Positions 3,438 to 31,440 of a stretch of DNA of 32,000 nucleotides are shown piece by piece; position 1 is the first letter of the stretch, and each line of letters opens with the position of its first letter. The notes below the pieces were generated by a model. It was not told where the DNA came from and did not search any database. It saw only the letters and a program-made list of their open reading frames with translations. Source of the DNA: Geobacter sulfurreducens PCA (GTDB lineage Bacteria; Desulfobacterota; Desulfuromonadia; Geobacterales; Geobacteraceae); contig NC_002939.5 in the NCBI RefSeq assembly GCF_000007985.2, positions 1,680,001 to 1,712,000 on the forward strand. The letters are read 5' to 3'. The position numbers and the translations under genes are program-made.

Positions 3438-7044
<3,607 letters not shown>

Positions 7045-22540: not shown

Positions 22541-22594
22541 TGCTGTTTGCTGCGGAGTTGCAGGCGCGATGCGCCCGCCGCGGACAGGGAGACG

Positions 22595-24580
22595 ATGTCC
22601 ATGCAGGTCACGAGCCTCAAAGCAAAATTCATTTCCGTCATCGTCCTCATCAGTTTAGCGGTGGGGGGGCTGACCCTCTTCGCCTTTGACACCAGCACGT
22701 CCGGCATCATTGACGATCTGGCTCTCCGGTTCGCTACCAAGGAGGCGCTGCTGGAGAAAAACAAGGTCATCTCCGTCATCGAGCGGGAGGTGGCACTGGC
22801 CCGGATGATGGCCCGGGACGTCACCCTCAGGCACTGGGCATCGGACGAGGGGAACCGCGAACTGCAGCGCGCGGCCTTTGCGGAGCTGGAAAACTACCGC
22901 ACCCTCTACCGGGACAAAAGTTTCTTCATTGCCCTGGCGGCGTCGAACCATTATTACGTCTATGACAAGCGAAACGGACACGGCCGTGTCGAAATGGTGA
23001 CACTTGACGGGTCCAAGCCCCACGATCGCTGGTTCTTCGAGGGGCTTCGCTCAATCGACGACTACGCCCTGAACCTGGATTACAACGCCACCCTGCAGGA
23101 GATCAAGGTCTGGTTCAACGCGGCCATGACCGACGGCAGCGGCCGAAAGATCGGCATCTGCGGCGGCGGCATCACCATTTCCGACTTCCTCAATCAGGTG
23201 GTGCACACCCGTCAGAAGGGGCTTTCAACCATACTGATGGACCGCGCCGGGGTGGTGCAGGCCCACGAGGACCGGAAAGTGGTGGAGCATAACGCCAACA
23301 CCCGCGACGTGGACCGAAAGATCACGATCTTCACCCTCATGGGCGATCCGGCGCGGGAAGCGCAGGTGCGGGGGGCCATCGAGTCCCTGGCGGCCGGGCG
23401 GAGCGAGGTGGAGGCGTTCCCGGTGCGGTTCGGCGGCAAGAGCTATCTCATGGCGATTTCGTTCCTGGAGGGGATGGGCTGGTTCAACGTAGTTCTGGTC
23501 GACGTATCCCGCGTCATCAGCATGAAGCAGTTCCTCCCCATCATCGCGGTCATGTCCCTGTCGCTGCTGTTGGGCATCCTGGCCATCGGCTTCCTGATAA
23601 ACCGGATGGTGCTGACGCCCCTGGGGAGACTGTCCGCCGCGTCCCGGGAGATTGCCGCCGGGCGGTACGATATTTCGCTGCCCGTGACCGGCCGGGACGA
23701 ACTGGGGGAGCTGACCGGCTCGTTCAATGCCATGAGTGCCATGGTCCTGGACCACACCACCAATCTCGAAGCCAGGGTCAGGGAACGCACCGACGAACTT
23801 TCCGCGGCCAACCGACTGCTGGAGGATTCCCAGCGCAGGATCATGGAGAGCATCACCTATGCCCGCATGATCCAGACCTCGATCCTGCCCGACCGGGAGT
23901 CGCTGGAGCGCTGCCTGGGCGACCATTTCATCCTCTACCGGCCCAAGGAGCCGGTTGGGGGGGATTTCTACTACCTGCGCGAGTTCCCGGACCACTTCCT
24001 GCTGGCGGTGATCGACTGCACGGGCCACGGCATTCCGGGCGCGTTCATGACCATGACCGTTAACGCGGTGCTGAACCACGTGGTGGATGTCTGCTGCAAC
24101 GACGATCCGTCCCGCATCCTGGCGGAGCTCAATCGCGTGCTGCGGAACACCCTGCACCTGCGGGACGTGGATGCCGGACTCGACATCGCTCTCTGCATGG
24201 TGGAGCGGCGAGCGGGCCGGTTGACCTTCGCCGGGGCGGGGCTTCCGCTGGTGCTGGTTTCCGGCGGAGAGGTGCGGGAGGTGCGCGGTGACCACCAGCG
24301 CGTGGGCTACAAGGGCTCCCGGATCGACTACCGGTACACCAACCATGTGCTGACCCCGGCAGCCGGAGACAGCTGCTACCTGACGACCGACGGCCTGCTG
24401 GACGAGCCGGGCGGAGTCAAGGGATACGGTTTCGGCTCGGAGCGGCTCAGGATGATCCTGGCCGATCATGCGCACCTCGCCATGCCGGCCCAGGCCGAGG
24501 CTGTCGAGGCGGCCCTGGACGCCTATCGGGGCGACCATCGCCAGCGCGACGACATTACCTTGGCGGGATTCCGTTTCTGA
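22595..24580 (+). CDS. siaA: SiaA-like membrane sensor: periplasmic Cache-like domain, HAMP, PP2C (SpoIIE/RsbU-type) phosphatase
   Basis: ATG 22595 follows GGGAGA. TM1 (FISVIVLISLAVGGLTLFAF) is followed by a periplasmic region of about 290 aa, then TM2. Next come HAMP (LTPLGRLSAASREIAAGRYD..ELGELTGSFNAM), a coiled coil, and the PP2C motifs GGDFYY, AVIDCTGHG and DDITLAGFRF. Confidence 0.85.
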   Translation: MSMQVTSLKAKFISVIVLISLAVGGLTLFAFDTSTSGIIDDLALRFATKEALLEKNKVISVIEREVALARMMARDVTLRHWASDEGNRELQRAAFAELENYRTLYRDKSFFIALAASNHYYVYDKRNGHGRVEMVTLDGSKPHDRWFFEGLRSIDDYALNLDYNATLQEIKVWFNAAMTDGSGRKIGICGGGITISDFLNQVVHTRQKGLSTILMDRAGVVQAHEDRKVVEHNANTRDVDRKITIFTLMGDPAREAQVRGAIESLAAGRSEVEAFPVRFGGKSYLMAISFLEGMGWFNVVLVDVSRVISMKQFLPIIAVMSLSLLLGILAIGFLINRMVLTPLGRLSAASREIAAGRYDISLPVTGRDELGELTGSFNAMSAMVLDHTTNLEARVRERTDELSAANRLLEDSQRRIMESITYARMIQTSILPDRESLERCLGDHFILYRPKEPVGGDFYYLREFPDHFLLAVIDCTGHGIPGAFMTMTVNAVLNHVVDVCCNDDPSRILAELNRVLRNTLHLRDVDAGLDIALCMVERRAGRLTFAGAGLPLVLVSGGEVREVRGDHQRVGYKGSRIDYRYTNHVLTPAAGDSCYLTTDGLLDEPGGVKGYGFGSERLRMILADHAHLAMPAQAEAVEAALDAYRGDHRQRDDITLAGFRF

Positions 24581-24638: not shown

Positions 24639-25169
24639 ATGGATCTCTTTCAGCTCCGGGAACAGTTCTCCAGGGACGGCATCCTCATGTGCTTCAACGG
24701 CCCCTTCTCTCACAGCATCATCGAGGAGATCGGCATTGCCATCAGGAACCACTTGGCCGCCGAGAACATTGCCCGCATGGCGGTTCAGGACGTGTTCGCC
24801 GTCTACATCGAGATGACCCAGAACGCCCGCAACTATCTGACCCGCCGGGACATCTCCCCGGCCGAGGCCGGTTCGGCCACCATCGTCATTGCCCGGCGGG
24901 ACGAGTTCTACTCCGTCACCTCGGGCAACGTGATCCTGAATGATGATGTGGAGCAGCTGCGCACCCGGATTGACCACATCAAGGCCCAGGCGCCGGACGA
25001 GCTGAAAAAGCTCATCCGGCAGCAACTGCGTGCCGAGGTCCAGCCCGGCGCGATGGGGGCGGGCATCGGCCTCATGGAAATGGCTAAGCGGGCCTCCGGC
25101 CGGCTGGAGTACAGCGTCCGCCCCGTCGACGGCCGGCATTCGTTTTTCACGCTGACAGCGCACATCTAG
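24639..25169 (+). CDS. siaB: SiaB-like protein kinase (anti-sigma-factor/HATPase-like partner-switching kinase)
   Basis: 176 aa from ATG 24639, which follows GGGAGGA. ILMCFNGPFSHSIIEEIG.., VYIEMTQNARNY and GAMGAGIGLMEMAKRAS (G-box) fit the SiaB-type kinase family. Its position between the PP2C and DUF1987 genes also fits. Confidence 0.75.
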   Translation: MDLFQLREQFSRDGILMCFNGPFSHSIIEEIGIAIRNHLAAENIARMAVQDVFAVYIEMTQNARNYLTRRDISPAEAGSATIVIARRDEFYSVTSGNVILNDDVEQLRTRIDHIKAQAPDELKKLIRQQLRAEVQPGAMGAGIGLMEMAKRASGRLEYSVRPVDGRHSFFTLTAHI

Positions 25170-25179
25170 GAGGCTCCGC

Positions 25180-25560
25180 ATGCGAGTGTTCGATACCATA
25201 CAGCAGACCGTCTCAACGCCCCTGGTCAGCTATGAGCCCGGGGGGCGGGTCCTGGCGATTTCGGGCGAATCCTACCCGGAAAACTCCTTCGAGTTCTACG
25301 CACCCATCGCCCAGTGGGTGAAAGCGGCCCTCGCCGATCCCGAGGGGCTCACGCTGGACATCAACGTCAGCTACATGAACAGCAGCAGCACCAAGTGCAT
25401 GCTTGATCTGCTCGACCTGTTCGAGGACGCCTACGGCCGGGGAGCAGCCGTGTCCATCACCTGGCGCTACGACAGGGAGAATCCCCGGTCCCTTGATCTT
25501 GCAGAGGAGTTCAAGGAAGAGGTCACCCTGCCGTTTGCCATCGTGGAACTGGAAGAATGA
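25180..25560 (+). CDS. siaC: SiaC-like DUF1987 regulatory phosphoprotein
   Basis: 126 aa. LAISGESYPENSFEFYAPIAQWV and INVSYMNSSSTKCMLDLLDL are hallmark DUF1987 blocks, and the latter contains the likely phospho-Thr. AGGAGG lies upstream. Confidence 0.85.
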   Translation: MRVFDTIQQTVSTPLVSYEPGGRVLAISGESYPENSFEFYAPIAQWVKAALADPEGLTLDINVSYMNSSSTKCMLDLLDLFEDAYGRGAAVSITWRYDRENPRSLDLAEEFKEEVTLPFAIVELEE

Positions 25561-25567
25561 GGTGGGT

Positions 25568-26737
25568 ATGCCGCGAAAGAAGAAAACCGTCGAAGACCCC
25601 GCGCTGACCCGTGCCTTGAAGGTCATGGAGGCGGGCGCGTTGCCGGATGCTGACCTGGCCGCCGAATTCGCCACCCTGGCCGAGAGTTACGGGAAGCTGC
25701 TGCGCAAATTCAACAAGACGCTCGTGATCAGCGATGCCTACGAGGCCCAGCATCAGGCAATGGCCAAGAAGCTGGAGGAGGCCACCTGGAAGTATCGTCA
25801 GTTGAAGGATGTGGCGCTCCCGATCTGCATGTACTGCAAGAAGATCCGCTCCGACGACGACTACTGGCAGCGGCTGGAAACGTTTTTCTGCAACCATGCC
25901 GATATCATGTTCAGTCACGGGATCTGCCCGGACTGCATCAAGACCGCCTATGAGAAGATGGGGATGAACAGGAGGGCCATGCCGCTGCCGGATGCTGCCG
26001 TGACCGGACAGCCGGCGGCGTCTCCCGAGCGGCAGCCGGTGGAGGACGACGCCCTCAGGGAGATGCGGGCGCTGGTGCGCCGGAGTGCCTTTGACGGGAG
26101 TCCGGTTGCGCCCGAGGTGGAACAGTTCGTCGAAAAGTACGGCAAGCTGCTGCGCCGCTTCAGCAAGATCGTCTCCATCAGCGACAGCTACCAGTCACAG
26201 CTCCGGGAGCTCAACGCCCGGCTGGAGCTGATGGCCCGCACCGATCTTCTCACCGGTCTCGCCAACCACTGGGAGATGGTGATGCGACTGGCAGCGGAGC
26301 AGAGTCGTTCGGAGCGAAACGGGAAGGTCTTTTCGATCGTGCTGGCGGATATCGATCACTTCAAGAAGGTCAACGACACCCACGGGCACCAGGCCGGCGA
26401 CCGGGTCATCCGGGGGATCGCCGACACCCTGCGTACCAATATCCGCCGCGAAGACATCTGCAGCCGGTGGGGAGGGGAGGAGTTCCTCATCATACTGCCG
26501 GAGGCGGATTTGCCGCGGGCCGGGGCCGTGGCGGCGAAGCTCCTCGCCAAGGTGCGGAATACGGTGGTCCCGTGGGATGGGCGCGACATCCGGGTCACCG
26601 TGAGCATCGGCTATGGCACCAGCGAACCCGGCATGAGCGTCGATGAACTGATCAGGCGAGTCGACGATGCCCTCTACAGCGCCAAGGCCGCGGGCCGCGA
26701 CCGGTTCGCCGCGGCCGGTTCCCGCGCCGACGTCTGA
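25568..26737 (+). CDS. siaD: SiaD-like diguanylate cyclase (GGDEF) with a duplicated N-terminal stalk helix and an inserted Cys/His module
   Basis: 389 aa from ATG 25568. The GGDEF domain has DIDHFKKVNDTHGHQAGD, the RRED I-site and RWGGEEF. The ORF-track start at 25403 overlaps siaC and is rejected. Confidence 0.85.
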   Translation: MPRKKKTVEDPALTRALKVMEAGALPDADLAAEFATLAESYGKLLRKFNKTLVISDAYEAQHQAMAKKLEEATWKYRQLKDVALPICMYCKKIRSDDDYWQRLETFFCNHADIMFSHGICPDCIKTAYEKMGMNRRAMPLPDAAVTGQPAASPERQPVEDDALREMRALVRRSAFDGSPVAPEVEQFVEKYGKLLRRFSKIVSISDSYQSQLRELNARLELMARTDLLTGLANHWEMVMRLAAEQSRSERNGKVFSIVLADIDHFKKVNDTHGHQAGDRVIRGIADTLRTNIRREDICSRWGGEEFLIILPEADLPRAGAVAAKLLAKVRNTVVPWDGRDIRVTVSIGYGTSEPGMSVDELIRRVDDALYSAKAAGRDRFAAAGSRADV

Positions 26738-26776: not shown

Positions 26777-29700
26777 TCACCCCTGCAGCGCCTCCCTGAT
26801 TTTTCCATCCAGTGTTGTAATGGTGAATGGCTTCTGCAGAAAGTGCAGGTCCTGTCCCAGCTCACTCCGATTGGACAGGATGTCCGAAGTGTAGCCCGAC
26901 ATGAAGAGGATTTTTATGTCCGGATTGGCCGCGCGCAGCTGGACTGCCAGGTCGTGGCCGTTCATACCGGGCATGATGACGTCGGTAATCAGCAGGTTGA
27001 TGGACCCCGCATGTGTCACGGCACTCTGCAGGGCCTCCTCCGGCGAGTTCACCGGCAGAACCTTGTACCCCAGCTTTTCGAGCATTGCTGCGCCCATGTG
27101 CATGATGGCTGCTTCGTCTTCTACGAACAGGATGGTTTCCGTCCCGCCGATAATCTCGGGCGCTGCCGGGATCGGGGCATCGGTCGGGGCGCTTGCGGCG
27201 GGGAAATAGATACGGAACGTGGATCCGTTACCCGGTAAGCTGCTGACCCTGATCTGGCCGCCGCATTGCTGGACTATGCCGTAGACCGTTGCCAGTCCCA
27301 GGCCGGTGCCGTGGCCCAGTTCCTTGGTGGTGAAGAACGGCTCGAAGATGTGTTCAAGCAGTTCCGGCCCGATGCCGCAGCCCGTGTCGCTCACCTCCAG
27401 CAGCACGTAGTCGCCGGGGGGGATGTCGTCCGTGCCGCTGGCCTCCCCGAAGGTTCCATTCGAGGTCTGGATGTTGATCTCCCCCGTGCCGGCAATCGCG
27501 TCCCGGGCGTTCACGCACAGGTTGACCAGGATCTGGTCCAACTGGGAGGGGTCGATCTTAACCCGCCTGAGGTTATAGCCCGGATTCCAGCCCAGCTTGA
27601 TATTTTCGCCCAGCAGCCTGCGCAGCATCTTGAGCATGCTGGTAATGGTGTCGTTCAGGTCCAGCACCTTGGGCACGATGGTCTGCTTGCGCGAGAACGT
27701 GAGCAACTGCTTGGTGATTTCGGCGGACCGCTTGGCGGCGCCCTGAATCTCTTCCAGGTTGTGATACAGGGGATTGTCCCGGTCCGTCTGCATCAGCGCG
27801 AGCTCGGTCCGGCCGATGATGATGCTCAGCATGTTGTTGAAATCGTGGGCCACGCCGCCGGCCAAACGGCCGATGGAATCCATTTTCTGCGCCTGGAAGA
27901 GCTGTTGCTCCATTCTGCGGTGTTCCGTGATATCCAGGGCGATGGAGAGGAGCCGTTTTCGGCCCGCAACGGGGATGATCGTTCCCCAGTACTTGCAGAG
28001 CACCTTTGCGCCCGATTTGGATCGCGTCTCCAGTTCCAGATCCTGGATCGAGCCGTTCTTCAGCATCATTTCCTTCAACCGTGTCCGGTCGGATGCACCG
28101 AGCCACCCGAGGGACACGGCGGTGTTGGCCAAGACCTCTTCCCTGCTGAAGCCGGAGATGTCGAGGAACCGCTGGTTCACATCCAGGTACCGGCCATCCT
28201 CGATGGTGCTGATGGTGATCATGAGCGGGGCGTTGTTGAAGGCCGACGAGAATTTCTCGTCGCTCTCGCGGAGCGAGTCGTGGACTTGCTTGCGCTCGGC
28301 AATATCCCAGACGAGGTCCGCAAAACGGGAAACAACGGCGATGTCTTCCCGGGTGTAGTCGGTCTTCTTGTTACCGATGCCGAGGATTCCGGCAATCTTG
28401 TCATGGCGCATGATCGGCATGGTCAGCTGCCGGTTCACCGGGGCGTGCCCGAGGGGGAGACCCTTGCGGTGGGGCAGCGACGCATAGTCATTATGGATGA
28501 CCGGCTGGCGCAGAGAGGCACAGTCGGTCCAGACGCCGGCCCGGCTGATGTCGTAATGCCTGTGGCTGCACTCGGCCGTACACAGTTCGGCCGTGCGCGA
28601 AGACCAGGCATGAAGGGTGATGGTGCGCTGATCCTCCTGCAGCAGATGGAAAAAACCGAGTTCGCTGCCGGTAAGCTCTTCGAGACGGTCGAGCGTCTCG
28701 GTCAGCAGTTCGTCCAGCGAGTGGGAAACGCTGTACTCGATGAGGTGCGTCCTGGCCAGCAGGAGCTGTGCCTCCTTTTTCTCCGCGGTGATGTCCCGCC
28801 AGATGCAGTGGTAGACGTTCTTTCCCTTGATGTGAGAATACTGGGCCCTGACCAGGATGGACCTCTGCTCGCCCTGCTTGGTGCGCTGCAGGGTTTCGAA
28901 CTCGTCGTATCCGTCGCGCATAATTTTCTGAATGCGGTTCCTGGTTTGCTCCGGCGACTCGACGATGTCGATGTCGGATATCTTCAGGCGGCTGAACTCT
29001 TCCCGCGTATAGCCGAGCTGACGGCAAGCCTGGTCATTGAAGTCGATGAGGGTGGCGTTTTCGGGGTCGATGATGACGACGCCATAAGGGTTCTGCTCGA
29101 AAAGCGTGCGGTGGAGAAGCTCGCTTTCCCTGAGCCGGTCCTCCAGTTGCTTGCGTTCGCTGATGTCCGTGCAGGCTCCGCGGTAGCCGACCAGGGTTCC
29201 GTGCTCATCCAGTATCGGCAGGGCGTTGGTGCTCATCCAGATGGTCCTGCCGTCCACGGCCACAACGGGATGAACCACCTCTTCCACTATCGTTTTGCTC
29301 GCGAACATCTCCAAAAACGATGTCTTGAATCTCTCGCGCCCCTCTGTGGGGTGGATTTCGTAAAAACGCATCGCACCGACCAGTTCGTTCGGTAGATACC
29401 CGAACACCGACTCGACCACGGGGCTCACATAGGTGAACAGGCCGGTCACGTCGATTTCCCAGGTGATGGTGCGGCTCTGGGCGGCAAGCTGATTGTAGCG
29501 CGCTGCACTTTCCTCGAGTTCCTTTTCCAGCTGATACTTCTTGTGCCGTGCGGAGAGCAGGCCGCCGAGCAGCGCCGTGCACAGGGGGTAGATCAGGATG
29601 ACGGGGAGGGCGAGAGACGCCATGGTCCTGGCAATGAGTTCCGTGGGCAGGAGCAGCATACACAGGATCATCCCCAGGTGGACCACCACGCCGAACAGGT

Positions 29701-30115
29701 ACAGCTCGCCGAATGAGAATGCCTTTGCCTGCCGCAGCCGGTAGTGCCGCCACGCCAGGCCGCATGCGCCGGAAAGGACGATGGTGGTAATTCCCATTGC
29801 CGTCCCCCCGCCGCCGAGGGCAAGGCGGTAGGTAGCGGCGATGGCCATGGCGATTACCGTGGGAATGGTGCCGAAGAAGAGGCCGGTAAGCCCCAGTAGG
29901 ATGGTGCGGGTGTCGAAAATAATGCCGGGACCGAATATGACCGGTGTCGCCATGAGAGCCACCGCAATGGCACCGGTGGTGACTCCCGAAACTATTCGGT
30001 TCATCAGGGGTGTCTGAATGTTCCGGCGGTAGGACAGGATGTCGTAAATCAGACCCAGCGACAGCAATAAGGCGGCATTGTTGACAAGCCCCAGGATGAT
30101 GCGTTCATTCACCAT
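26777..30115 (-). CDS. Hybrid sensor histidine kinase: multi-TM (5TMR-LYT-like) N-terminus, PAS-PAS-GAF-PAS, HisKA, HATPase_c, C-terminal receiver
   Basis: The probable start is ATG 30115 (MVNERIILGLV..), which leads into about six hydrophobic helices. Phospho-His box GGVAHDFNNML; ATPase boxes NLCVNARDA, DTGCGI and GTGLGLATV; receiver ILFVEDE..LLITDVIMPGMNG..K. Confidence 0.9.
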   Translation of the reverse strand: MVNERIILGLVNNAALLLSLGLIYDILSYRRNIQTPLMNRIVSGVTTGAIAVALMATPVIFGPGIIFDTRTILLGLTGLFFGTIPTVIAMAIAATYRLALGGGGTAMGITTIVLSGACGLAWRHYRLRQAKAFSFGELYLFGVVVHLGMILCMLLLPTELIARTMASLALPVILIYPLCTALLGGLLSARHKKYQLEKELEESAARYNQLAAQSRTITWEIDVTGLFTYVSPVVESVFGYLPNELVGAMRFYEIHPTEGRERFKTSFLEMFASKTIVEEVVHPVVAVDGRTIWMSTNALPILDEHGTLVGYRGACTDISERKQLEDRLRESELLHRTLFEQNPYGVVIIDPENATLIDFNDQACRQLGYTREEFSRLKISDIDIVESPEQTRNRIQKIMRDGYDEFETLQRTKQGEQRSILVRAQYSHIKGKNVYHCIWRDITAEKKEAQLLLARTHLIEYSVSHSLDELLTETLDRLEELTGSELGFFHLLQEDQRTITLHAWSSRTAELCTAECSHRHYDISRAGVWTDCASLRQPVIHNDYASLPHRKGLPLGHAPVNRQLTMPIMRHDKIAGILGIGNKKTDYTREDIAVVSRFADLVWDIAERKQVHDSLRESDEKFSSAFNNAPLMITISTIEDGRYLDVNQRFLDISGFSREEVLANTAVSLGWLGASDRTRLKEMMLKNGSIQDLELETRSKSGAKVLCKYWGTIIPVAGRKRLLSIALDITEHRRMEQQLFQAQKMDSIGRLAGGVAHDFNNMLSIIIGRTELALMQTDRDNPLYHNLEEIQGAAKRSAEITKQLLTFSRKQTIVPKVLDLNDTITSMLKMLRRLLGENIKLGWNPGYNLRRVKIDPSQLDQILVNLCVNARDAIAGTGEINIQTSNGTFGEASGTDDIPPGDYVLLEVSDTGCGIGPELLEHIFEPFFTTKELGHGTGLGLATVYGIVQQCGGQIRVSSLPGNGSTFRIYFPAASAPTDAPIPAAPEIIGGTETILFVEDEAAIMHMGAAMLEKLGYKVLPVNSPEEALQSAVTHAGSINLLITDVIMPGMNGHDLAVQLRAANPDIKILFMSGYTSDILSNRSELGQDLHFLQKPFTITTLDGKIREALQG

Positions 30116-30308
30116 TGCACCCGTGAATTGACCTCGCGATGCACTGCGGACACCCATACTACCACAGGTAAATCGCGGGCATACATAATTTTGTTAACGA
30201 GATGCGAATGCGTATACGAAAACCATGCCATGCATGGAATGTCTGGTTGGTAACGATTTAAGGATGTGGATACGCTGAAGGTAACAGTGACGACAGTGGC
30301 TGCCAGAA

Positions 30309-30351: not shown

Positions 30352-31281
30352 TCAGGGAAGGGGAATCAGGGGGATGGTACCCAGGTCGGTTGCCTGTCCG
30401 GTCACCACGGAAACGGCTGAAGAGGAGTAGACCTGGAAGCCGTTGGTAGTGATGAATGCCTTGTACGTCACCGGCAGAGTGTTCGGCGGAACGAACGCCG
30501 CAAAGGGGGCCTGCCACGCGCCGCCAGTGTAGTTACTGAAGATCAAGCCAGCGGCAATGGGATCGTTGTCGTTGGTTGATCCGCGGCGTTTTACCGACAC
30601 CGTTGCGCTTGACCAGGGCATGAATGTCGACATGACGTTTCCGGAAATGGATCCGAACTGGGTAAGGGGATCGGACAGGTGCACGACGCGAATCCCCGTC
30701 GGCTTCAGGTTGTAGTCGCCATTGCCCCTCGCAACGATGGCGGTATTGGGGTCGAAGTCTATCATGACCGCATTGATGACCCCGGCCCTGACTTCTACCG
30801 GGCCAAGAACCTTAACCCCGGATTGCTGGCCGCTGGGAGTCGTCAGGGGGATCTGCGTGACGGGATCAGCCTTCAGGGTCAGGTAGTTTGCCGGTGCCGG
30901 GTCGAGAACAAGCCGGATCTGGCTGTAGGCTCCCGCAGGGAGAACCGCCTCGCCCAGCGCTTCCTGCACGAACTGCAATTGCATCACGTCGATGACCCTG
31001 GATGGGGTGAATCGGGCGATCACCGGCAGGCCGGGGTCGTTGTCGGGCGCATTCTCCCTGCCCGCCGGCACGACACGTATTTCCCTGATGCTGATGATGA
31101 CCTTGTCGAACGAATCGCTCTGTTTGTCGGTAATGGAAAGTTTCAGGGTTCCCGTTGACGCCGCAGTGCTTGCCGATCCGCCATCCCCTCCGCCGCCGCA
31201 TCCGTGCATCAGCATCAGTGCCGCAAGCGCGGCGGCAAGAATCCCCAGTACTCCCATAGCTGACTTTTTCGCGCGTACCAT
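30352..31281 (-). CDS. DUF4382-family lipoprotein
   Basis: ATG 31281 follows AAAGGAG. The signal peptide MVRAKKSAMGVLGILAAALAALMLMHGC is followed by a Gly-rich linker. LKLSITDKQSDSFDKVIISIREIRVV.. and AGAYSQIRLVL are typical DUF4382 blocks. The upstream GTG at 31317 falls in the terminator tail and is rejected. Confidence 0.8.
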   Translation of the reverse strand: MVRAKKSAMGVLGILAAALAALMLMHGCGGGGDGGSASTAASTGTLKLSITDKQSDSFDKVIISIREIRVVPAGRENAPDNDPGLPVIARFTPSRVIDVMQLQFVQEALGEAVLPAGAYSQIRLVLDPAPANYLTLKADPVTQIPLTTPSGQQSGVKVLGPVEVRAGVINAVMIDFDPNTAIVARGNGDYNLKPTGIRVVHLSDPLTQFGSISGNVMSTFMPWSSATVSVKRRGSTNDNDPIAAGLIFSNYTGGAWQAPFAAFVPPNTLPVTYKAFITTNGFQVYSSSAVSVVTGQATDLGTIPLIPLP

Positions 31282-31319
31282 TGTCCACTCCTTTCCCCGT
31301 TTCGTCTGGACATCCACGC

Positions 31320-31440
31320 AAAAAAAAACGGGATGCCGAATTTGTGGTGATAGTTCGGCATCCCGGCTGTCTCGGTGAGACCCTGTGGGCTTTCCGCCCC
31401 ATCCTCGCGGATGGTTTAGTAGTATCGTGTATCACGCTCA
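31320..31440 (-). promoter_or_regulatory. Candidate GEMM-I (cyclic-di-GMP-I / cGAMP class) riboswitch with intrinsic-terminator expression platform
   Basis: The minus-strand RNA reads ACUAAACCAUCC-GCGA-GGAUGGGGCGGAAAGCCCACAGGGUCUCACCGAGACAGCCGGGAUGCCGAA. It shows the AAACC lead-in, a 6-bp hairpin capped by a GYRA tetraloop, a G.CG.AAAGCC junction, a second hairpin and the AGCCGGG.UGCC 3' block of GEMM-I. The terminator CGGGAUGCCGAA-13 nt-UUCGGCAUCCCG plus U9 (31365-31320) shares its 5' arm with the aptamer 3' end. Confidence 0.55.

Follow-up and report, generated by a model that had tools for sequence, protein, structure and literature searches.

The four codirectional genes siaA, siaB, siaC and siaD lie in a stretch of 32,000 nucleotides from Geobacter sulfurreducens PCA (contig NC_002939.5, positions 1,680,001 to 1,712,000 of the forward strand; this whole stretch is called the window and is numbered from its first letter). 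The last gene is a long form of siaD at 25568-26737. We think it rather probable that this gene encodes SiaD, the diguanylate cyclase in a SiaABCD partner-switch operon, and is a member of a conserved ‘long SiaD’ subfamily of Desulfobacterota, with dual docking of its partner SiaC and with a second output on a four-cysteine (Cys4) module. To our knowledge SiaABCD, a structurally characterised partner-switch route to cyclic di-GMP (c-di-GMP) and biofilm, has so far been studied only in Pseudomonas. The parts of the long protein, in amino acids (aa) and with structure predicted by AlphaFold2 (AF2; pLDDT, predicted local distance difference test), are as follows.

25568-26737, forward strand: long-form siaD; the 389-aa product is about 99-100% identical to G. 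sulfurreducens WP_119332516, ‘diguanylate cyclase’.

25577-25786, forward strand: unit 1 (aa 4-73), a short N-helix, loop and stalk helix 1; defined by self-alignment, hhalign, motif conservation and AF2 helices 11-21 and 27-83.

25739-25960, forward strand: module as delimited by profile (aa 58-131), a pre-module helix plus Cys4 mini-domain; 99.3 bits in hmmsearch with profile A1.

25817-25945, forward strand: Cys4 core (aa 84-126), LPIC-x2-CKKIR...W...E...FSHGICPDC, with C87, C90, C120 and C123.

25961-26026, forward strand: linker (aa 132-153), disordered, ~30 aa, pLDDT <50, poorly conserved (14% median identity).

26027-26236, forward strand: unit 2 (aa 154-223), an N-helix, loop and stalk helix 2 that runs directly into GGDEF; AF2 helices 161-175 and 182-224.

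26237-26704, forward strand: GGDEF catalytic domain (aa 224-379), Pfam GGDEF with expectation value (E) 2.8e-41; GGEEF at aa 302-306 and an RxxD I-site at R293-D296.

An earlier note on this DNA, made from the letters and their open reading frames (ORFs), had called the protein a SiaD-like cyclase, and the searches agree. Among PDB entries P. aeruginosa SiaD matches best (7e6g, E 1.6e-44 over aa 188-382, phmmer), among NCBIfam models diguan_SiaD (NF038266, biofilm regulation diguanylate cyclase; 245.1 bits for the whole protein, 232.6 bits for aa 138-389 alone), and siaA, siaB and siaC lie directly upstream. GGEEF (302-306), R293/D296, D261/D263, K266, N269 and D278 are invariant or almost so in 114 full-length orthologues; judged by these residues, the catalytic site and the I-site of long SiaD are intact.

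The two stalk helices that the earlier note had described as paralogues (copy 1, aa 30-72, 25655-25783; copy 2, aa 181-223, 26108-26236) lie exactly where it had placed them, as does the segment C87-C123 between them (25826-25936). Their kinship held up in a formal self-alignment, and the repeat is longer than had been claimed. Aligned without gaps, aa 4-70 and aa 154-220 reach a BLOSUM62 score of 114, compared with 25.6±4.7 for shuffled sequences (0 of 2000 as high). Profiles of unit 1 and unit 2, cut as aa 1-83 and aa 150-224 from the alignment of the 114 orthologues, match in hhalign with a probability of 99.5% (E 3.3e-23, 67 columns). The short N-terminal helix alone also matches in register (E 2e-4); thus the repeated unit is a short helix, a loop and a long stalk helix, and extends beyond the stalk. 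On these alignments units 1 and 2 are paralogous.

The duplication was also said to be visible in the DNA. The two 18-mers on which that impression was based (25688 and 26138) share 17 of their 18 letters, but the similarity is no more than conserved residues and codon bias provide: over 67 codons the copies are 52% identical in DNA, and the same codon is used for 14 of the 24 identical residues where local codon usage predicts 12.3. Between orthologues, identity is 49% for copy 1 and 63% for copy 2, while the two copies within one protein are 39-44% identical (median 39%). A recent duplication was rejected because orthologous copies are closer to each other than paralogous copies and because codon identity is at the codon-usage expectation; by these measures the duplication is old.

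The AF2 model of the full-length protein (pLDDT 79.9) contains helices 11-21 and 27-83, a small domain at 84-130, disorder at 132-153, helices 161-175 and 182-224, and the GGDEF fold. It agrees with the proposed layout of a stalk plus module joined by a linker to a stalk plus GGDEF domain. The interval aa 127-159, which contains the linker, varies from 28 to 45 aa among orthologues. A search with aa 1-137 did not find a free-standing stalk-plus-module donor gene; its matches were a fragment, a frameshifted Trichlorobacter lovleyi copy and one relative without a GGDEF domain.

In the P. aeruginosa SiaC-SiaD structure, four SiaC are bound to a parallel coiled coil of two SiaD chains. Each stalk has two very alike SiaC-binding motifs, centred on S50/Q54 and S82/Q86, and SiaC phosphorylated at T68 is unable to bind SiaD (PMC8457831). 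We mapped the 13 SiaC-contacting SiaD residues of that study through the phmmer alignment to 7e6g (PMC8457831). Copy 2 of the window protein, K200-x3-I204-S205-D206-x-Y208-Q209-x-Q211, aligns to the proximal SiaC-binding motif, and 10 of the 13 contact residues are identical or similar (R197, K200, I201, I204, S205, D206, Y208, Q209, R213 and E214). Copy 1 reads K50-x3-I54-S55-D56-x-Y58-E59-x-Q61; its family consensus over the 114 orthologues is K50, I54, S55, D56, Y58 and Q59, mostly with K/R63 and E/D64. From this mapping we infer that SiaC would dock on both stalks. The SiaC of the window retains the Y-x-N-[S/T]-S motif of Pseudomonas SiaC (alignment E 3e-29), with Ser at the acceptor position (residues 63-70, SYMNSSSTK) versus Thr68 in P. 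aeruginosa (LYLNTSSIK).

The second stalk had been proposed as an additional docking site. Copy 1 does have the docking residues; the novelty of a second site did not stand, since two motifs are already present in Pseudomonas SiaD, which makes a second SiaC site normal for this cyclase (PMC8457831). What is new here, as far as the sequences tell, is that the two docking sites are set apart by the module. P. aeruginosa SiaD (PA0169; 7E6G, the SiaC-SiaD-GpCpp complex) resembles the window protein in being encoded by the final siaABCD gene, in its GGDEF domain with RxxD I-site, and in an N-terminal helical stalk with the ISDxYQ docking motif and two motifs per protomer. Its motifs are contiguous on one helix, whereas those of the window protein lie on separate helices 150 residues apart, each with its own N-helix and loop before the motif and with the Cys4 module and disordered linker between them. 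The lengths differ accordingly, 389 aa versus 252 positions in the NCBIfam SiaD model.

The long architecture is widespread. A full-length search gave at least 118 clusters (90% identity) of 373-409 aa. They cover 90-100% of the query at 43-99% identity and belong to Geobacter, Geomesophilobacter, Oryzomonas, Trichlorobacter, Desulfuromonadaceae, Desulfovibrio sp. X2 and four species of Fundidesulfovibrio. The idea of a one-off fusion in this gene was not sustained by these numbers. To judge from these relatives, Desulfuromonadia and Desulfovibrionia have the long form as their standard SiaD, and siaA-siaB-siaC lie upstream in all three distant members inspected (Desulfovibrio sp. X2, a metagenome-assembled genome and T. 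lovleyi; loci L003, L004 and L005). Median identity to the window protein is highest in the Cys4 module (77%), followed by the stalk 2 motif (70%), the GGDEF domain (56%), the stalk 1 motif (48%) and the linker (14%). By this measure the module is the most constrained segment of long SiaD.

Geobacterales also have short SiaD proteins (P0182, 239 aa; P0181, 231 aa) that are 57-60% identical to aa 150-389, and P0182 is encoded directly after siaC in a siaABCD operon. They share unit 2 and the GGDEF domain with the long form but lack unit 1, module and linker, and thus have one docking motif. There are at least three SiaD stalk designs: one motif (short Geobacter form), two tandem motifs (Pseudomonas) and two separated units flanking a Cys4 module (long form). 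As far as could be found, the last has no prior description.

Within the module, C87, C90, C120, C123, P85, W100 and P121 are invariant in the 114 orthologues. The motif originally drawn was CxxC-x17-CxH-x6-HxxCxxC. Its four outer cysteines proved invariant, but the middle cysteine and both histidines are not conserved: the other orthologues have S, G or A in place of C108, 80 of 114 retain H110 and 90 of 114 retain H117, and Desulfovibrio and Fundidesulfovibrio, which read FSQGLCP or FAQALCP, have lost the His. K91 is often H or R across long SiaD, and H117 is likewise relaxed. The pattern of four invariant Cys beside a variable middle Cys and His points to a Cys4 site as the likely metal centre, and C87, C90, C120 and C123 most likely coordinate one Zn (or Fe). 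The window protein itself carries all the consensus residues of the module (C-x2-C-K-K-I-R, W and F-S-H-G-I-C-P-x-C). The segment was confirmed as a module with wider limits than the Cys motif: the unit takes in the preceding helix (aa 58-131), so the stalk 1 docking motif continues directly into the module helix. Modelled alone, the module has a pLDDT of 74.7 and a β-helix-β-helix order (β10-13, helix 25-37, β41-44, helix 47-56).

We found no Pfam (up to E 10) or NCBIfam match for the module. A profile search of PDB sequences returned nothing below E 0.2, and Foldseek of the AF2 model of the module against the PDB nothing below E 0.96. Foldseek ranked Fur and PerR first, by their Zn(Cys)4 dimerisation domains (probability 0.23, not significant). 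Among open-access papers none on the module was found, and the SiaC-SiaD structure paper was the sole relevant one. The module does not group with rubredoxin or ZAS (zf-HC2), for neither of which there was a Pfam match up to E 10, and no rubredoxin is among the Foldseek matches. ZAS has H-x3-C-x2-C with a conserved His, whereas the module has H-x2-C-x2-C and has lost the His in 24 of 114 orthologues. The spacing C-x2-C-x29-C-P-x-C equals that of clostridial rubredoxin. The likeness to the Fur/PerR site and to rubredoxin knuckles consists of two CxxC knuckles on a small α/β unit; the predicted topology differs and there is no significant sequence or structure match, so that it is an analogy only. 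Positions 17-61 of the module profile (IRDD-x-GyW-x3-E-x-Y-x3-HS) resemble the N-terminus of mammalian glutamate dehydrogenase (PDB 1hwy and others; IRRDDGSWEVIEGYRAQHS); the match is not significant (E 0.2) and we treated it as chance.

Another comparison is the zinc-regulated E. coli DgcZ (YdeH), in which, as in the window protein, a metal-binding domain is joined via helices to a GGDEF dimer. In DgcZ a CZB four-helix bundle with a 3His/1Cys site is fused directly to GGDEF. It has no kinship to the module in sequence or predicted fold and, unlike the window protein, no partner protein. DgcZ is cited as a coiled-coil-regulated cyclase in the SiaC-SiaD study (PMC8457831).

The module is by no means confined to SiaD. 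A single-sequence phmmer search with aa 75-136 returned 62 short proteins (best E 5e-15), all with LPIC-x2-CKKIRDD-x-GYW...E-x-YI-x2-HS-x-A-x-FSHGICP-x-C behind a coiled-coil helix; the family consensus is L..AL..VK.L.GLLPIC..CKKIRDD.GYW..IE.YI..HSEA.FSHGICP.C..KLYP. Profile A1, built from 54 sequences with the window fragment among them, was searched against 1.84 billion representative proteins (clusters at 50% identity) and found 24,485 representatives at E ≤ 1e-3, of which 20,241 also pass E ≤ 1e-10. In the top 150 representatives the tail after the module has a median of 15 aa. With 258 residues after it, the module of the window protein is internal instead; it shares the invariant residues and the coiled-coil helix in front with this unnamed, C-terminal family, and differs from the family norm in its position and in standing on a SiaC-docking stalk rather than on a sensor domain. 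Two modules, one of them internal, occur in 13 of these 150 by strict regular expression and in ~40 by hidden Markov model stretches, with a low-complexity linker after the internal copy. P0183-P0223 are two-module tandem fusions, for example REC-coil-module, a linker, and REC or MASE6/PAS-coil-module.

Pfam partners in 110 module proteins are PAS (61), MASE6 (21), GAF (11), REC (10), HAMP (4), PocR and Cache; the same scan found no other output domain and no model covering the module. The source names are generic (‘PAS domain S-box protein’, ‘response regulator’). The earlier note was therefore right that the Cys segment recurs as a module in PAS and receiver proteins, normally at their C-terminus, and the profile search with a count of domain partners that the earlier note had called for found no Pfam or NCBIfam model of it. 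It is a routine part of long SiaD orthologues, and not an annotated one. The all-input partners of the module favour an output or interaction role over an extra sensory input, on the evidence of domain composition. We suggest tentatively that the module may be a signalling output domain which binds a conserved cellular target, be it protein, nucleic acid or nucleotide.

B12-binding (corrinoid) proteins adjoin module proteins in three loci (L001, 2935-4327; L079, 4001-8447; L080, 4001-8507), which could be chance. In L001 a 108-aa coil-plus-module ORF overlaps the end of a B12-binding_2/B12-binding gene, and two related Desulfuromonadales loci contain a REC-module protein, a PAS kinase, a B12-binding protein and a URO-D methyltransferase.

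The docking unit, too, appears outside cyclases. P0343 (237 aa), the GGDEF-less relative from the aa 1-137 search, consists of unit 1, module, linker and unit 2 and ends before any GGDEF. Its gene lies in the metagenomic locus L006, in the order siaA, siaB, siaC, a gene for a 331-aa protein and P0343 (4009-5714 for the last two), with an aminotransferase gene next. The 331-aa protein begins with a SiaD-like docking unit (…LLLRRLHKTLVISDSYHKQLHDL…), followed by HisKA and HATPase_c. A genome scan with this docking unit plus kinase protein gave 72 loci, mainly from Campylobacterota, matched via the kinase core and not the docking unit. Three of the 72 (L016, L042 and L049) have SiaC-like genes nearby, and L049 alone has a docking-like motif. 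In this Halarcobacter locus a small histidine kinase (5896-6846) has an N-terminal …RLDKIIKQSDKFQFQLL… that resembles the SiaC-docking motif, and SiaA-, SiaB- and SiaC-like genes lie at 5054-5911, 1202-735 and 629-273. The sequences thus hint at SiaC-regulated kinases in Campylobacterota, and these single examples suggest that the docking unit may be a general ‘SiaC receiver’ able to drive varied effectors. A docking unit on varied effectors fits unit 1 and the module as an input-output pair.

We propose the following mechanism. Long SiaD would be a parallel dimer with unphosphorylated SiaC on both stalks, two SiaD to four SiaC as in Pseudomonas. SiaC on stalk 2 would zip the coiled coil and align the GGDEF pair for c-di-GMP synthesis. 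On stalk 1, SiaC would set the geometry of the metal-stapled Cys4 module, a second, non-enzymatic output or interaction surface built on KKIR, W100, E104 and FSHG; the module presumably has the same role in sensors without other output. The flexible linker would mechanically uncouple the two outputs. Phosphorylation of SiaC by SiaB would switch both off together, so that SiaA and SiaB would set both through the phosphorylation state of SiaC.

Several observations weigh against this proposal. The window protein has E59 in copy 1 where Pseudomonas has the key Gln (Q in 100 of 114 orthologues), and copy 1 evolves faster than copy 2. The binding of SiaC to either stalk is predicted from residues, and metal binding is deduced solely from the four invariant Cys. 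The module has a pLDDT of just 56-66 inside the full-length AF2 model, and around free-standing module proteins no common partner gene was found in five loci. At 245.1 bits the protein does not reach the equivalog cutoff of NF038266 (290 bits), and profile positions 1-54 are unmatched; relative to that model it is, by its score, a diverged SiaD subfamily. Finally, the module could be a structural clasp and nothing more. As a metal-stapled cap or a knot for dimerisation it would keep the N-terminal coiled coil together, with no separate target. On this reading long SiaD would be a constitutive dimer, compared with the inactive pentamer at rest in Pseudomonas, and unit 1 would merely add the site missing from short SiaD. 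The module always stands behind a coiled-coil helix, its sole weak structural neighbours are the Fur and PerR Zn(Cys)4 dimerisation domains (probability 0.23; E 0.35), and the motif count of one in short SiaD and two in Pseudomonas SiaD fits an added site. We nevertheless consider a clasp unlikely. Neither the Foldseek nor the PDB matches are significant, the invariant surface-type residues (KKIR, E104 and S116) exceed what metal binding needs, and the module is better conserved than the catalytic domain; moreover, it is the only domain after the sensors in ~24,500 representatives, all of which a mere cap would leave without output.

The strong constraint on the module bears equally on the suggestion that unit 1 and the module form a tethered SiaC sink, or an autoinhibitory fold-back on stalk 2, such that the cyclase fires above a threshold of free SiaC and the module is incidental baggage from the donor. 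The flexible linker permits a fold-back, a GGDEF-less relative with the unit-module-linker-unit order exists, and copy 1 is the less conserved copy, with a Q-to-E change at the key position in this strain. Yet its docking residues are conserved over 114 orthologues, and the segment under the strongest constraint in the protein is hardly baggage; a decoy of this kind seems to us very improbable. The sensor-only partners and the extreme conservation of the module argue against clasp and decoy alike. The earlier thought of a redox- or metal-sensitive input meets a different difficulty. Here a Zn-thiolate or rubredoxin-like Fe(Cys)4 site would act as a switch, and oxidation or metal loss would unfold the module and alter cyclase activity. 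The rubredoxin spacing, the anaerobic life of the host organisms and the well-established thiolate switches of other regulators speak for it. The absence of Pfam rubredoxin and zf-HC2 matches up to E 10 and of rubredoxin among Foldseek matches speaks against it, as do the two helices of the predicted fold. The module also occupies the output position behind dedicated sensor domains, and a disordered linker makes allosteric coupling to GGDEF unlikely; output position and floppy linker argue against a redox or metal input, which we regard as quite improbable. A second output on the Cys4 module is the reading we prefer.

A small Cys4 domain by itself would be unsurprising. If the module is an output domain, tens of thousands of seemingly output-less PAS, GAF and REC proteins would share one hidden output, and its function, once found, would supply the missing output of a very large group of orphan sensors from anaerobic and sediment bacteria. 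Long SiaD would in that case be an effector with two outputs, where a single phospho-switch, SiaC, governs c-di-GMP synthesis and a second pathway. The docking unit, for its part, can be joined to effectors other than a cyclase, for example a histidine kinase. With a known, measurable SiaC input and c-di-GMP output, the genetically tractable G. sulfurreducens offers a practical entry to module function, and Geobacter is a model for electroactive biofilms, so that a SiaD variant is of practical interest.

The three genes in front of siaD are listed here; the siaA coordinates are those of the longest ORF, and its real start is possibly a few codons further 3'.

22547-24580, forward strand: siaA, HAMP plus PP2C (SpoIIE) phosphatase; NCBIfam prot_phos_SiaA E 4.6e-172; Pfam HAMP and SpoIIE.

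24639-25169, forward strand: siaB, SiaB-family protein kinase; NF038262 E 1.4e-56, which exceeds the cutoff; Pfam DUF6272.

25180-25560, forward strand: siaC, SiaC-family phosphoprotein, which in its unphosphorylated form is the activating partner of SiaD; Pfam SiaC E 4.7e-36; PDB 6k4f/6kko/7e6g E 3e-29 with alignment.

The siaD gene starts with ATG, with GAGGTGGG just 5' of it, and orthologues begin with the identical MPRKK, which matches the start chosen. There is a second in-frame ATG (M138; window 25966-25981) with AGGAGG 5' of it; like the true start it opens with ‘MP’, and translation from it would give 252 aa, just as many as the NF038266 model has positions. We rejected an internal start at M138 as a conserved feature, since the Met and its surroundings vary in orthologues; judged by sequence, a short isoform from M138 in this strain is unlikely. 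A sequencing artefact or accidental read-through of two genes was also rejected, as the 373-409 aa architecture recurs in at least 118 clusters from two classes.

Convergent with siaD, on the reverse strand, is a gene for a hybrid histidine kinase (26777-30157, 1126 aa; 5TMR-LYT, three PAS, GAF, HisKA, HATPase_c and REC), the two stops being 40 nucleotides apart. A c-di-GMP-I (GEMM-I) riboswitch aptamer at 31354-31430 (reverse strand; 40.4 bits, gathering score 35) lies just upstream of an ORF for a DUF4382 protein (30352-31317, reverse strand), ~4.6 kb from siaD. Some members of the GEMM-I class in Geobacter sense cyclic GMP-AMP (cGAMP) instead.

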